A DNA stretch of 27,291 nt from a virus (Duplodnaviria > Heunggongvirae > Uroviricota > Caudoviricetes): positions 64,001 through 91,291 of the IMG/VR virus record IMGVR_UViG_3300031994_000051; one strand, written 5' to 3'. Position numbers and translations under genes: made by a program. This document shows positions 13,460 through 21,558 of this stretch, one piece after another (the first letter of the stretch is position 1; each line of letters opens with the position of its first letter). Below the pieces are notes generated by a model. The model searched no databases and had not been told where the DNA came from. It saw only the letters and a list, made by a program, of their open reading frames with translations.

Positions 13460-14500
13460 TCACTTGTGTTCGATGCAGATCGGGTTGTCGATCGGCCTCC
13501 CTTTCCTGTCGAGATCGATCATGTCTGGACTTATTCTTGAGAACCAGTATCTTCTCGGCTTGTAGTCCATGAGGTTCTTACCCCTTTCCTTGAGGCTGTT
13601 GTAGCTTTTCTCCCCGTTCCTTGACATCGATCGTATCAGGAACCTGTTCACCCCGTCCCTGTGGTATCCTTCGATAACTATGCCTCCATAGGCCATGTAA
13701 GCCCTGAAGTCGTCCATTCCCCTTATGCACTTGATGAACGCCTTCTTTATCGCGCTGTTCCTGTACCCCTTGAACCCTGACGGGAACGTGATCATGTCCT
13801 CTCCCTCGAAGAACATTGGCTTTATGGGTTTCCTTCCGTCCCAGAACTCGATCGATCCAGTCATGAAGCAAGGCCGTATGTCCTTGCAGAACGTGAGCCT
13901 GTCGAAGAACCCGTCTATAGCCTGCGCCCTGTGCGTGTTTATCCACAGTATCCATGACTCGGATTTCTTGCTCTCTGGCTTCTGGTGCTGCCTCATGCGC
14001 TCTATGCTGTACTGCTTGAACGTGAAGCCACAATCCGATCGGGTGTCTATCAGTGGAGTGTATGACAGTTTGGGGACGATCACCTTCTGCTTCGGGCTGT
14101 ACTGCGCACCGCAGACGAGAAGATGCTTGTCGTTGAGAAGCCTGTTGAAGTCTGGTATGTCTGGCTTCTTCCTCCTGTCGCGTTTCTTGTACTTGCGCTT
14201 CGCTTGTTTTTCGGCAAGTTTTTCCGCGAGTTTCTTCAGCCGTAGCCTTTCCTTGCGTTTGGCCTCGTATTCCGCACCCCTGCGTCTCCTGCGCTTCGGG
14301 CCTGGCCTGTGTTTCCTTTTGACCTTCCTGCGATCGATCTTGTGGCCGTGCCTGTCGTATGTTATGCCAAGCCCTTCCTTAGGCTCGTCAGCCTTATGTT
14401 CGACGCGCATCCACTTTGTCGGCCTGTTCTCCTTGGATGCGTTTTTGTTGCCCTTCTGTGATGTCTGGGTCTTTTTCTTCGTTTTCTTGCTTTCTTCCAT
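13460..14500 (-). CDS. very basic hypothetical protein (346 aa), K/R-rich N-terminus, possibly nucleic-acid binding
   Basis: Start moved to MEESKK (14500); RRKVKRKHRPGPKRRRRR tract then a ~220-aa globular-looking region; no family recognised. Confidence 0.8.
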   Translation of the reverse strand: MEESKKTKKKTQTSQKGNKNASKENRPTKWMRVEHKADEPKEGLGITYDRHGHKIDRRKVKRKHRPGPKRRRRRGAEYEAKRKERLRLKKLAEKLAEKQAKRKYKKRDRRKKPDIPDFNRLLNDKHLLVCGAQYSPKQKVIVPKLSYTPLIDTRSDCGFTFKQYSIERMRQHQKPESKKSESWILWINTHRAQAIDGFFDRLTFCKDIRPCFMTGSIEFWDGRKPIKPMFFEGEDMITFPSGFKGYRNSAIKKAFIKCIRGMDDFRAYMAYGGIVIEGYHRDGVNRFLIRSMSRNGEKSYNSLKERGKNLMDYKPRRYWFSRISPDMIDLDRKGRPIDNPICIEHK

Positions 14501-14582
14501 ACTGTATCTATCTATGTTTCCAAAAGGATCGATCCTTGTGAACACAGGATATATAAATCGAAAAACATAACCAAACAAAGAA

Positions 14583-14726
14583 ATGAAGATCAATGACATA
14601 AAAGTCATACCGCACTATGACGGGAATTATAATGTCAGTGGTATAACGATTTTTCCTCCGAAAGGGTTTAAGGCTAAAGGGAATGTGCCGACGATAATAG
14701 AATTTGAGCCGATCGAACCTAAATAG
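14583..14726 (+). CDS. small hypothetical protein (47 aa, MKINDIKVIPHYDGNY...)
   Basis: Translated by hand; typical A-rich leader; divergent from the 346-aa gene. Confidence 0.55.
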   Translation: MKINDIKVIPHYDGNYNVSGITIFPPKGFKAKGNVPTIIEFEPIEPK

Positions 14727-14801
14727 ATATTCCTTTATTGGATTGATCCAGTCTGGTTGGTGTTCTGTTGTTTTTGACTCGGTCTTATTGTGTACATTCT
14801 G

Positions 14802-14816
14802 GATCCCACTGGGATC
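14802..14816. repeat. 15-bp palindrome GATCCCACTGGGATC
   Basis: Exact copy; first of a tandem pair 48 bp apart. Confidence 0.95.
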
Positions 14817-14849
14817 CGTTTTATGTGTACGGATGTCACTGCGAAAACG

Positions 14850-14864
14850 GATCCCACTGGGATC
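14850..14864. repeat. 15-bp palindrome GATCCCACTGGGATC
   Basis: Exact copy; second of the tandem pair. Confidence 0.95.
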
Positions 14865-14925
14865 GATCGTTTTGCGCGGAATGACAGAATGTCATGTCAG
14901 GTACTAACAAAATGTCAGTTTTGTC

Positions 14926-14956
14926 TTGGATCGTGTCGGATTTTTTCGTATCTTTG
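14926..14956 (+). promoter_or_regulatory. Bacteroidota sigma-A-type promoter with no convincing ORF downstream
   Basis: TTG-N20-TATCTTTG. Confidence 0.8.
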
Positions 14957-14959
14957 CAG

Positions 14960-15270
14960 CACGAAACATGACAAAAAGGCAGATCCGATCTTTCCCCTTT
15001 CCTGACAGGATGTCAGTGAAGGTTCTTGATCGGATCTGTCGAAAAATGAATCGTGACTGTTTGTGTGTTTAATTGAAACACCATGTGGTTCCCGTCTCGG
15101 TTTATCCACAACATCAAGAATGCATGTTTTGTGTCCCCAAATTCGTAAAAATTGCGAATACCAGAGAAAATTTTTAACAAATAATGAAAGATCTCTGGTG
15201 ACAATCATATGCAATTAATCTCATCGCATATGATTTGGATCGATCGGAATTATGGTGATCGATCCTGTTT
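14960..15270 (+). ncRNA. candidate hairpin-rich non-coding transcript (or cruciform-rich DNA element)
   Basis: Own promoter; stems CAGATCCGATC/GATCGGATCTG, ACCAGAGA/TCTCTGGT, AATCATATGC/GCATATGATT, GGATCGATC/GATCGATCC. Confidence 0.45.
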
Positions 15271-15309
15271 GTGATCATGCTTGTTATCCTGATTGATGGT
15301 TTTATTGGT

Positions 15310-15731
15310 AAAAGGGAAGCGGATCGATCGCGGCTGTGTACTTGGGATGGGGACCCTCCAGCCCAACTGTTGTTAACATGCGCAAGCCCGTCGGCGTTCT
15401 GGTATAATTGGGCGGCGCAATGGCGTAGCGGCGTTTCCGCTTCCGCTTCCCTTGATAGGTCTGGGTTGTTGGCTTGACAGGTGGCTTATTGGCGGGGGCG
15501 AATAGGTGTTGATCGTCCAATCTCGCGGCCATCCGTTCTTGGTTTCTGGGCCTGAAGTAATGGCATCTTTGCACCAGCAGGTCTCTAGATTAACCAGACC
15601 TTGTTTCCCGCTATTAGTTTATAGCATATAGGCCGATCGGCGGGTAATCAGCTTGCCGTTTATACCCTGCAGGGTTATCGTGAAGGGAACGGCCTGTTCT
15701 CCATCTGTGTGGGGCGGTTCCCTTTTCACAA
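15310..15731 (-). ncRNA. candidate ~420-nt multi-domain structured ncRNA, family unknown
   Basis: GC-rich island behind its own promoter; tiled by long-range stems (12 bp 15312-15323/15442-15453; 8 bp 15457-15464/15594-15601; 5' hairpin ~15680-15730); GCG-GAAA-CGC tetraloop on - strand. Confidence 0.6.
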
Positions 15732-15733
15732 TG

Positions 15734-15764
15734 CAAATATACGGAAATATTTTTTATCTGGAAA
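15734..15764 (-). promoter_or_regulatory. variant promoter (TTTCCAG-N10-TTTCCGTATATTTG)
   Basis: TATATTTG -7 box at 15734-15741; no TTG box; same architecture as the promoter at 21528. Confidence 0.75.
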
Positions 15765-15893: not shown

Positions 15894-16184
15894 TCATTTC
15901 CTGTTGATATTCCATCCGAGTTTCAGGATCAGTTTCAGCGTCTCCATGGCGGTGGATCGATCGTATTCCTTTTCGGTTTCTGGGAGATCCTGATACGGTA
16001 CGAGACAAGGATGTTTCTTGAGGGAGTCGTCTCTTGATGGTCCGTATGTCCATCCTTGATCGATCCTTTGTTTTGCCCAGATGTCGTGGACGTTTTCTGC
16101 GATTCTTTCTCTGAGTTCTTCCAGTTCTTCAGGAAGGTTGATGTCCGACGTGTTGATCGGATTCGGTTTGTAGGTGTTTTTCAT
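15894..16184 (-). CDS. stand-alone RyR (ryanodine receptor repeat) domain protein (96 aa)
   Basis: AENVHDIWAKQRIDQGWTYGPSRDDSLKKHPCLVPYQDLPETEKEYDR is the classic RyR-domain signature. Confidence 0.92.
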   Translation of the reverse strand: MKNTYKPNPINTSDINLPEELEELRERIAENVHDIWAKQRIDQGWTYGPSRDDSLKKHPCLVPYQDLPETEKEYDRSTAMETLKLILKLGWNINRK

Positions 16185-16240
16185 TTTCTCTTTTTTATTT
16201 GTGTATAAACACATTGTTGTTATGTATTTGAATTACGGTG

Positions 16241-16272: not shown

Positions 16273-16650
16273 TTAAATCAAGTTTTTTAAAACATACAAA
16301 ATCGCTGCGTCAACGGCTTGTTCTGGTTTATCAAAACTAAGTTTTTCTAATTCTTCAAAGGATTGCATATCCCAAGATTCTTCCGTCATTGTGTATATTG
16401 CAGGATAGAAACAATGTTTATCGTTTATATCAGGTTCAGATGTGATATAAATACTATACAATTCCTTCAGCCATTTGATAGCGATATGTTGTGTTGGGCA
16501 ATCAAGCAGTTTACCATCACAAAAGCCATACATGGTGTAGTCAACAAGCGAACCATTAAAGTATGCTTGTCTGCAAGGTATATCAAACCCTTTCTCTTGC
16601 AAGAGTTGGGCAATTTCAGAATTTACATAGTCCTCGGTAATTTGTTTCAT
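16273..16650 (-). CDS. hypothetical Bacteroidota-phage-type protein (125 aa)
   Basis: Start moved to MKQITEDYV downstream of promoter; motifs EIAQLLQEKGF and PTQHIAIKWL. Confidence 0.85.
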   Translation of the reverse strand: MKQITEDYVNSEIAQLLQEKGFDIPCRQAYFNGSLVDYTMYGFCDGKLLDCPTQHIAIKWLKELYSIYITSEPDINDKHCFYPAIYTMTEESWDMQSFEELEKLSFDKPEQAVDAAILYVLKNLI

Positions 16651-18763: not shown

Positions 18764-20008
18764 TCAAAGGTTCAGTTTGAACACTTTTGGTGATACAACG
18801 TCACCTCTATCCCGTAAGCACATTAGCTGTGCATCCGAGATTACATTCCCTTTTCTCATCATTCCTATGGAACCGTTTATGTCGGCGTTAAGAATCTTTC
18901 CTGTGGATGAAACGAACAATCCTCTCTTTGTCCTCTTTCCCATGTACTTTTCATGGTGTTTCATATCTTCCAGAACTATATGGTCAACCTTGCTTGTGTA
19001 TGATTCCTCGACCGTTTCAACAACCAAGTCCGTGTATTTCAGAGCCTTGTACTTGATCTGCTCAATCAACGTGTTGAAAGGGATCTGCACGAAGTTCTGG
19101 TTGTTCCTTCTTCCGATGTTCACTTCCTGTTTCCATCCTTTGTTATGGCCTATAATGATCTTCTCCACACCGTTCCTGACACAGAAATCAACCAGTTGTT
19201 TTGACGCACAATGCAGGTAATGGTTTACCTTTGCGTTTCTTTTCTTCGTCAATCTCTGAATCCTCTTGCTTGTGTGTTTGTTGTTGCATTTTTCGAGTTC
19301 AGACTTGTACTCCACGAGTCTCTTGTTATAGAACTGGTTCATGGACTTCAGTGGTCTACCGTTAACGACGTATGAAAAGGGTTTGTCGTTTGAAGTTATA
19401 GCACACAAGTTATTTACACCTAAATCAATTCCTATGCAAGAATTTGAGTCATAGTTGTTCCTTATTACTTCCCTGTCTTCATATATGATGTTTATCTTTA
19501 TTTTGTCATAGTATTTCTGTATTGTGACTTGTCTAACATCTTTCAACTTTATCTGTCTTGGTACGAATATCTTGTAGCCAGAACAAGGTATTGTGAAAGA
19601 GTTTGTTTCTGGATCCTTCTTTCTGAACCTGCTTGAATCGATGTATATGATGTTATATTCCTTTGTCTTGTAAAGATAGTTCGGCATCTTCGGCCTGCCA
19701 TTGAACTTGGAAGGATTTTGTTTATATGATTGTGTCGCCTTGATCCATGACAGCCAGTTCTTTGCAACCTGTCTTACGACATATTGCTTGATGTTTATGT
19801 CAAGCTTTGATTCGGCAACCTTGCTTTCTGTCTTGACCTTCTCCCAGAGCTGGTTGTATGAATAAGTCTTTATCTTCCCTTGTTCCTTTGTCTCGAAATA
19901 CGCCTGCCTCTGGAAGTACAGGGCCTGATCATATATGGAAAGCGAATCAGACATCATACCAAGAAGCCTGATGTCGTTCCTTACCACTATGTTCCAAGAC
20001 CTGAGCAT
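18764..20008 (-). CDS. tnpB: RNA-guided endonuclease TnpB (IS200/IS605/IS607 family), no TnpA in window (414 aa)
   Basis: RuvC-I GIDLGVNNL; IIIGHNKGWKQ at the RuvC-II position; VEESYTSK; RuvC-III NADINGS. Confidence 0.93.
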   Translation of the reverse strand: MLRSWNIVVRNDIRLLGMMSDSLSIYDQALYFQRQAYFETKEQGKIKTYSYNQLWEKVKTESKVAESKLDINIKQYVVRQVAKNWLSWIKATQSYKQNPSKFNGRPKMPNYLYKTKEYNIIYIDSSRFRKKDPETNSFTIPCSGYKIFVPRQIKLKDVRQVTIQKYYDKIKINIIYEDREVIRNNYDSNSCIGIDLGVNNLCAITSNDKPFSYVVNGRPLKSMNQFYNKRLVEYKSELEKCNNKHTSKRIQRLTKKRNAKVNHYLHCASKQLVDFCVRNGVEKIIIGHNKGWKQEVNIGRRNNQNFVQIPFNTLIEQIKYKALKYTDLVVETVEESYTSKVDHIVLEDMKHHEKYMGKRTKRGLFVSSTGKILNADINGSIGMMRKGNVISDAQLMCLRDRGDVVSPKVFKLNL

Positions 20009-21314: not shown

Positions 21315-21354
21315 AAAACAAAACTAACCTATGGAATAAAACCCCTTGATTATG

Positions 21355-21425
21355 AGCGACTTATGAGACTCGAACTCACCTTTTCAGAGTGGAAATCTGA
21401 TGTCCTGCCACTGGACGAAAGTCGC
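21355..21425 (-). tRNA. tRNA-Gly (anticodon TCC), CCA not encoded
   Basis: Full cloverleaf: acceptor GCGACTT/AAGTCGC, D GTCC/GGAC, anticodon TCAGA-TTTCCAC-TCTGA, T arm GTGAG-TTCGAGT-CTCAT; Gly identity G1-C2-G3 and U73. Confidence 0.93.
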
Positions 21426-21429
21426 GTCT

Positions 21430-21525
21430 TTGTCAAACCAGCGGATCCGCTGCGGCGTGCCAGCCGTGGAAGGAGGTGTGCGGAACGGCTGGCGGGCCGA
21501 TTGCGTCTTCACCGCTGCTTGACAA
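21430..21525 (-). ncRNA. candidate ~96-nt hairpin RNA co-transcribed upstream of tRNA-Gly
   Basis: Ends pair (TTGTCAA/TTGACAA plus CAGCGG/CCGCTG); perfect inner 9-bp stem GCCAGCCGT/ACGGCTGGC with a 17-nt C-rich loop. Confidence 0.6.
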
Positions 21526-21527
21526 TG

Positions 21528-21558
21528 CAAATATACGGAAACTATCCGAAACTGGAAA
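21528..21558 (-). promoter_or_regulatory. variant promoter (TTTCCAG-N10-TTTCCGTATATTTG) driving hairpin RNA and tRNA
   Basis: TATATTTG at 21528-21535; same layout as 15734-15764. Confidence 0.78.

Follow-up and report, generated by a model that had tools for sequence, protein, structure and literature searches.

We report a GC-rich island of about 420 nt (positions 15310 to 15731 of the window, the 27,291-nt stretch of DNA from a large Bacteroidota-type phage analyzed here) that has roughly even odds, a probability of about 0.5, of being a lineage-restricted gene for a structured noncoding RNA (ncRNA), transcribed from its own predicted promoter on the minus strand. The island does not code for protein. 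Its promoter and first hairpin are conserved, its copies share a fold that rises above background, and the paired bases of its last domain are under constraint. It belongs to no described RNA family.

The island is known from four variants of one phage lineage

The IMG/VR virus record whose final 27 kb form the window is 91 kb long and has an estimated completeness of 57%; a 173-kb ENA contig carries the same genes as this record. Genes in the window run rightward up to about 13.3 kb and leftward from about 15.9 kb, and the island sits in the hub between the two arms. This hub is where genes change orientation and where cumulative GC skew switches, the latter because of the former. As the initial annotation had pointed out, the island is GC rich, with 0.55 to 0.60 at 15301-15500 compared with a mean of 0.40 for the 91-kb record; it is one of five stretches of at least 200 nt in the record with a GC content of at least 0.56. 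An AT-rich stretch follows it. The annotation had also called the island poor in GATC, and this description fails: its 422 nt hold 4 GATC sites, and the very high density of the window would predict about 5.3. GATC occurs across the whole window at about twice expectation (344 matches versus 177.5 ± 12 in shuffles), often as GATCGATC doublets and within perfect palindromes. Alternative genetic codes (TAG read as Q, and table 4) were considered and rejected, as they left the short open reading frames (ORFs) of the window unexplained.

The route to relatives of the island was a neighboring basic protein of 346 to 382 amino acids (aa), whose 90%-identity cluster has 13 members. The contigs of these members yielded three more copies of the island, in L008, L010, and L011, and a scan of JGI metagenomes with a conserved 24-mer returned one contig, L014, whose copy differs from that of L010 at one position. 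This makes four distinct variants, all from one phage lineage, whose islands are about 79 to 84% identical to that of the window. The relatives are 450 to 470 nt long, compared with about 420 nt in the window. We found no second copy in the 91-kb record, either by DNA search or with a covariance model of the last domain (P5).

Wider searches placed the island nowhere else. INPHARED phage records had no DNA match for the island or for the 12-kb stretch around it, a 24-mer scan of GTDB genomes gave no match, and exact-pattern scans of IMG/VR with five conserved or stem segments returned nothing or chance matches only. When 120 IMG/VR loci sharing a 15-mer were rechecked by nhmmer, one marginal match was left (E = 0.044). 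A further candidate, L013, was rejected as an 18-mer coincidence within a coding region. The genes next to the island were followed as well. An RyR-domain protein is encoded at 15894-16214 (minus strand; Pfam E value, 3e-40), adjacent to a gene for a 125-aa protein at 16273-16650 (minus strand); the IMG/VR relatives of the RyR protein (L002 to L004) are without the island, and the 250-aa and 382-aa neighbor proteins have no relatives in IMG/VR. Distant homologues of the basic protein (L005 to L007, about 59% amino acid identity) come from phages of about 55% GC that have small genes upstream of it, and blastn, tblastx, and the P5 covariance model detected no island in them. In L008, both the RyR gene and the 125-aa gene are absent and the island promoter directly follows a 226-aa gene, which points to gain or loss of cassettes between promoter copies.

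Overlapping reading frames are not conserved

Two ORFs overlap the island, one of up to 90 codons at 15302-15574 on the minus strand (76 to 90 codons) and one of 68 codons at 15271-15477 on the plus strand. That either is a small protein gene is highly improbable. Every copy does have open frames, and one gene caller annotated the plus-strand ORF as a 52-aa gene in L010; the other callers left the region empty. However, the copies differ by indels of 1, 4, 6, 14, and about 25 nt, and the 1-, 4-, 6-, and 14-nt events shift or interrupt the frames. No frame stays open across L008, L010/L014, L011, and the window on either strand. Peptide fragments of the 90-codon ORF switch frame from copy to copy. 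The 68-codon ORF has a start codon that is not conserved, and its frame is shifted by four indels in the window copy and by one in that of L011. Long open frames are in any case expected on the sense strand because it is poor in T (C, 0.30; G, 0.24; T, 0.18), and the island ORFs matched no Pfam or PHROG family. Read from these alignments, the overlapping ORFs are not genes. The claim of the initial annotation that the island is noncoding is thus borne out, and the small-gene reading is already contradicted by the frameshifts. A conserved ORF at 15302-15574 was one of the findings by which that annotation would have given up an RNA, and the homologues do not show it.

A predicted promoter leads into an invariant 5′ hairpin

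A promoter scan marked a site at 15764-15736 on the minus strand, and we delimit the predicted promoter as 15734-15764. Its −7 box, TATATTTG, lies at 15741-15734 below upstream A/T-rich elements and is of the Bacteroidota type; the prediction rests on motif and conservation only. The position of the box would set the start of transcription at the foot of the first hairpin. The site is invariant in all relatives, in agreement with the dedicated promoter that had been proposed for the island from the window alone.

The promoter core, TTTCCGTATATTTGCATTGT, matches that of the tRNA-Gly locus (21541-21522) at 20 of 20 nt, and the identity takes in the first transcribed bases, CAUUGU. At that locus (21426-21541, minus strand), a long end-paired leader hairpin precedes the tRNA. 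A core, TTTCCGTATATTTGCA, is common to many promoters in the window, and many mRNA promoters of the phage share 15 to 18 nt of the island promoter core, so the promoter is not diagnostic of a stable-RNA class.

The 5′ hairpin, P1 (15680-15729), pairs GUGAA..GGGAAC with GUUCCCUUCAC and contains an inner CCA/UGG stem. Together, the promoter and P1 form a run of 94 nt without a single change in all five sequences, compared with variation at 36% of the fourfold degenerate sites in the neighboring basic-protein gene. A mini-ORF at 15669-15698 (minus strand) has its AUG in the loop region of this hairpin. It spans 15 codons in three relatives and 9 in the window, where a C/T difference makes an earlier stop, and it is probably not meaningful.

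Five domains make up the island

After P1, the minus strand continues with P2 (15648-15679), a hypervariable module. In the relatives it is a hairpin unit of about 25 nt (GCAGU..ACUGC) present in one or two tandem copies: the unit, CCUCGCAGUGGGUAUAAAACUGCAA, occurs once in L011 and as a tandem pair in L008 (2990-3045) and L010 (1755-1805), and the window has a divergent single version of it. The stem ACCCUGCAGGGU listed by the initial annotation is present in the window copy at about 15664-15675. P3 (15605-15647) is a CCCGCCG/CGGCGGG hairpin with its CCCGC/GCGGG stem at 15607-15644; its 3′ arm carries G-U-compatible changes in the relatives and one C-A mismatch in the window.

Two larger domains complete the island. 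P4 (15457-15601) is closed by an 8-bp helix, AGGUCUGG/CCAGACCU, which pairs 15594-15601 with 15457-15464 and encloses 129 nt. The enclosed multibranch region contains a GGCG/CGCC hairpin and an ACGG.UGG/CCACCCGU helix, and the longest invariant block of the island, 26 nt, falls within this domain. In L011 the closing helix is retained despite about 40% divergence of the block around it. P5 (15308-15456) is closed by a helix of 11 to 12 bp, AAGGGAAGCGG/CCGCUUCCCUU, around a junction with two hairpins. In the window the helix reaches 12 bp (AAGGGAAGCGGA/UCCGCUUCCCUU), pairing 15442-15453 with 15312-15323 and enclosing 118 nt, and the last P5 hairpin is shorter by 14 nt. P5 is the best-supported part of the island.

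Nested stems had been the core of the initial annotation, and all of the long ones are found at the places it gave. Inverted repeats exceed shuffle expectation: only 6 of 1,000 dinucleotide shuffles of the island contained a perfect inverted repeat of at least 11 bp within 200 nt, and the island has nine perfect 8-mer inverted-repeat windows where 0.9 is expected. Two of the shorter elements on its list turned out to be private to the window copy: the ACCC-UGCA-GGGU stem and the hairpin with the tetraloop GCG-GAAA-CGC.

The variants share a fold

Folded alone, the window copy is only slightly more stable than shuffled sequence (z = −1.94 in the minus sense, with 4 of 100 shuffles equally good, and z = −1.50 in the plus sense). 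The three relatives give z values of −4.40, −4.33, and −3.79, and none of 100 shuffles did as well. Their minimum-energy folds have the same five domains, P1 to P5, and this architecture is common to all four variants. RNAalifold assigned the aligned island a consensus energy of −114 to −115 kcal/mol. Shuffles within the same gap and conservation class reached about −77 (z = −7.7), and dinucleotide-preserving column shuffles reached about −74 (z = −7.1), while two coding controls of equal length gave z values of −0.5 to +1.2. Since the first kind of shuffle keeps the conservation, the conserved blocks must be complementary to one another well beyond chance. In 200-nt windows, the island gave z values of −1.6 to −5.8 on the sense strand, compared with −2.4 to +1.9, mostly near 0, for the coding flanks on either strand.

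The antisense consensus is nearly as strong, with z values of −6.1 to −6.4, so thermodynamics alone cannot tell an RNA from inverted repeats that act at the level of DNA. We therefore weighed the reading that the island is a DNA element, its repeats serving as sites for protein binding or recombination or as part of a transcript-primed replication origin. The long helices of P4 and P5 pair perfectly by Watson-Crick rules and have arms that never change, as in such an element, and the place of the island at the switch of gene orientation and GC skew, with the AT-rich stretch behind it, would suit an origin. Against this, several helices pair only through G-U in the minus sense, where DNA or the other strand would have C-A mismatches. 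Helices shared by the folds of both strands contain 5 G-U cells versus 1 A-C cell, and reading the alignment by hand gives about 7 changes that keep pairing through G-U versus 1 of the A-C type. There are no iterons, the tandem repeats are confined to the variable P2, the skew switch is accounted for by gene orientation, and the C-rich composition of the predicted RNA is unfavorable for a stable R-loop. We regard a DNA-level element as quite improbable. The promoter favors a minus-sense RNA, and so does the wobble pattern, which is suggestive only.

Paired bases of P5 change less than unpaired ones

We compared the island with the fourfold degenerate sites of the basic-protein gene, which differ between the window and L008, L010, and L011 at 0.216, 0.157, and 0.245 per site, respectively. 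For the island body the corresponding values are 0.146, 0.146, and 0.237 substitutions per site, plus 41 to 49 gap columns; the promoter and 5′ hairpin differ at 0 to 0.04. By these rates, the body as a whole is on average close to neutral. Change is unevenly spread within it. Blocks near P2, and the 5′ half of P4 in L011, are only 48 to 64% identical, and the island also holds invariant runs of 26, 18, 15, and 13 nt, much longer than permutation would give (P = 0.0004). Of ungapped island columns, 0.246 are variable, compared with 0.358 of fourfold sites.

Does the conservation follow the pairing? To keep the comparison from being circular, pairing was taken from folds of one sequence at a time. 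In P5, 9 to 13% of paired positions vary versus 31 to 39% of unpaired positions (odds ratio, 0.18 to 0.24; P = 5e-5 to 1e-3), and 39 of its 42 pairs never vary; the other three are each departed from by the window copy alone, with an unpaired cell. P4 shows a trend in the same direction that is not significant, and by the same single-sequence folds P2 and P3 show no extra conservation of paired positions. Counted in this way over the whole island, 49 to 60 changed paired cells are broken versus 13 to 21 kept. Covariation, which the initial annotation had put forward as a check, is not significant among the four variants: 6 helices have double changes versus 3.1 ± 2.0 in shuffles (P = 0.11), a comparison that has low power with four sequences, and none of the 42 pairs of P5 covaries.

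These numbers bear on the reading that the island is a nonfunctional relic. In such a case, only the promoter cassette and its hairpin would be functional, and the GC-rich body would be foreign or decayed DNA drifting behind them, for example, the remnant of small genes from a relative of higher GC, with the fold being incidental. The near-neutral rate of the body, its many indels, and the covariation result are what drift would produce. The basic-protein gene is GC elevated, like the island, the relatives of about 55% GC have small genes at the island position, and the lineage gains and loses cassettes between promoter copies, as with the RyR and 125-aa genes. The window copy is itself degraded. 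It carries most of the helix-breaking changes and scores 148 bits with a P5 covariance model (R1) that gives the relatives 194 to 206 bits; with its 14-nt loss and the most mismatches, it looks like the most eroded of the variants, and the helix-breaking changes together with its z value of −1.9 indicate that it may be decaying. However, a drifting body does not account well for invariant blocks that exceed permutation expectation, for their mutual complementarity at z = −7.7, for three relatives with z values near −4, or for conservation specific to the paired bases of P5. Neither tblastx nor nhmmer detected similarity between the island and the small genes of the distant relatives. We consider a relic rather unlikely, and a structured ncRNA gene is still our preferred reading.

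The region between the island and the basic-protein gene

No intrinsic terminator was called after P5. Farther along, 14737-15130 is a string of GATC-rich perfect palindromic hairpins; with z values of −6.6 to −9.3 on both strands, it is the strongest structure signal of the region, and it is more conserved than fourfold sites. Within the string, at 14800-14864, are twin GGATCCCAGTGGGATCC palindromes, which look like a back-to-back (bidirectional) pair of terminators. From these features, the 3′ end of an island transcript could lie between about 15308 and about 14845. A plus-strand motif, TTTTCGTATCTTTGCAG, at about 14934-14950 resembles the early promoter core of the phage, faces the island, and is conserved in the relatives; an antisense transcript from this motif is possible.

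The basic-protein gene (13460-14608, minus strand) is on the same strand as the island, and all close relatives with a sufficiently long contig have the two together. The protein has a Lys/Arg-rich N-terminal half and a conserved C-terminal domain of about 190 aa. This domain belongs to an unnamed family that also occurs as stand-alone proteins of about 170 aa, with 125 clusters at an E value of ≤1e-3. The model of the full-length protein is poor (pLDDT of 51), and an AlphaFold model of the C-terminal domain has a pLDDT of 91. No solved structure resembles the domain convincingly (Foldseek E ≥ 0.04; VIA Z ≤ 4.5), and its matches among AlphaFold clusters are all uncharacterized, so the protein offers no functional lead.

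The same-strand linkage and the missing terminator raise the question of whether the island is a transcribed element acting in cis, either as the leader of the basic-protein unit (14500-13460) or as an insulator or processing region between convergent arms. The hairpins at 14737-15130, with the strongest structure signal of the region and more conservation than neutral sequence, would fit this, as would an antisense transcript overlapping the island. But about 1.2 kb separates the island from the start codon of the basic protein, and this interval contains a 47-aa ORF on the opposite strand and the terminator-like palindromes. The distant homologues of the basic protein do without an island. 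In a further contig, L016, only 30 nt separate the basic-protein gene from a TnpB gene (2-991) upstream of it; the basic-protein gene can thus function without an adjacent island, and the linkage is not obligatory. A cis-acting role is unlikely in our view. TnpB genes are found at differing places in close relatives (18764-20008, minus strand, in the window; 2-991 in L016; 7626-8858 in L008), and these elements appear to have moved within the lineage.

Discussion

We favor the view that the island is a structured ncRNA gene of this lineage. If so, transcription would begin near 15730, where P1 has its foot, from a host-type promoter of the early class, and P1 would shield the 5′ end of the transcript against end-dependent decay. 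At the other end, P5 would be a compact junction domain; purifying selection on its paired bases suggests that it is probably a stable core or a 3′ anchor. The fast-changing stretch from P2 to P4, including the hairpin copy number, probably carries any specificity for a partner, whether protein or RNA.

A more specific version of this view is that the island represents a class of ornate RNA not described before, about 450 nt long and made early in infection by a single lineage of large Bacteroidota phages, with an invariant, caplike 5′ hairpin, a conserved 3′ junction domain, and a fast-evolving middle that sets the partner. In an arms race between phage and host, such an RNA might, for example, serve as a scaffold or a decoy, perhaps together with the linked basic protein, whose C-terminal domain has no known fold. 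We put this forward tentatively, as a possibility well short of even odds. The initial annotation had likewise suggested a class of large RNA that is either undescribed or known but diverged. That proposal is supported by the noncoding status, the conserved promoter, the shared fold, and the absence of an Rfam match; it is not supported by covariation or by adjacency to tRNA genes.

To our knowledge, few large structured RNAs are known from Bacteroidota phages. If the island is a real RNA, it would add an unrelated example with an unusual evolution, frozen at the ends and fluid in the middle, a pattern that hints at involvement in conflict between phage and host. For now, its value is reduced by the four variants of one uncultured lineage and by covariation that is not significant. 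What has been gained in concrete terms is negative: the overlapping ORFs have been discarded as genes, and no cataloged RNA family fits.

The comparison with known families was made at several levels. Searched at the gathering threshold, Rfam 15 had a single match across the window, tRNA-Gly, and for the island no family qualified, among them GOLLD, ROOL, OLE, HEARO/omega-RNA, raiA, tmRNA, RNase P, 6S, introns, and riboswitches. With E values as the cutoff, the island gave chance matches only (15.7 to 18.8 bits, far below threshold), and the L008 and L011 copies likewise gave only subthreshold matches. The absence of tmRNA and RNase P signatures, noted when the island was first described, agrees with the lack of any Rfam match. 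We found no literature on RNAs of this phage group.

A minus-strand TnpB gene (OrfB_IS605 plus Cas12f-like TNB) occupies 18764-20008 of the window; the omega-RNA (reRNA) of TnpB in IS200/IS605 elements overlaps the 3′ end of tnpB, next to the right end of the element. The island resembles an omega-RNA in being a candidate structured ncRNA within a genome that carries TnpB. This identity was rejected: the island lies 3 kb downstream of tnpB with several genes between, L008 has the island with its TnpB gene beyond the basic-protein gene, and neither HEARO nor another guide-RNA family matched.

ColE1 RNA II and the transcripts of T4 oriF and oriG are promoter-driven origin transcripts, those of T4 belonging to R-loop origins. 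The island shares with them a promoter followed by a structured noncoding region. Unlike them, its predicted transcript is C rich rather than G rich, and no unwinding element lies directly downstream of its promoter.

Closer in kind are the small stable RNAs C and D of phage T4 (species 1 and 2), which are about 120 to 140 nt long and encoded inside a tRNA cluster. The island is likewise a phage-encoded candidate RNA, with the 20-nt promoter core that it shares with the tRNA-Gly locus, but it is three times longer. The initial annotation had drawn attention to RNAs encoded near tRNA genes, and proximity of this kind does not extend to the island: 5.6 kb and several protein genes separate it from tRNA-Gly (21354-21425), the only tRNA in the window.

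Few classes of RNA are as poorly understood as the large structured RNAs of phages, GOLLD and ROOL among them, and RNAs of this type often adjoin tRNA genes in phage or prophage DNA. GOLLD and ROOL, both Rfam families, are large ornate RNAs of phages and prophages, and cryo-electron microscopy has revealed them to be nanocages (Kretsch et al. 2025, PMC12286853). The island differs from them in having no covariance-model match even at an E value of ≤10, in being shorter (420 to 470 nt), in lacking adjoining tRNA genes, and in being known from four close variants without covariation support. It is tied to GOLLD and ROOL by general category alone: like them, it is borne by a phage, several hundred nucleotides long, and predicted to be driven by a promoter and to fold into multiple domains.
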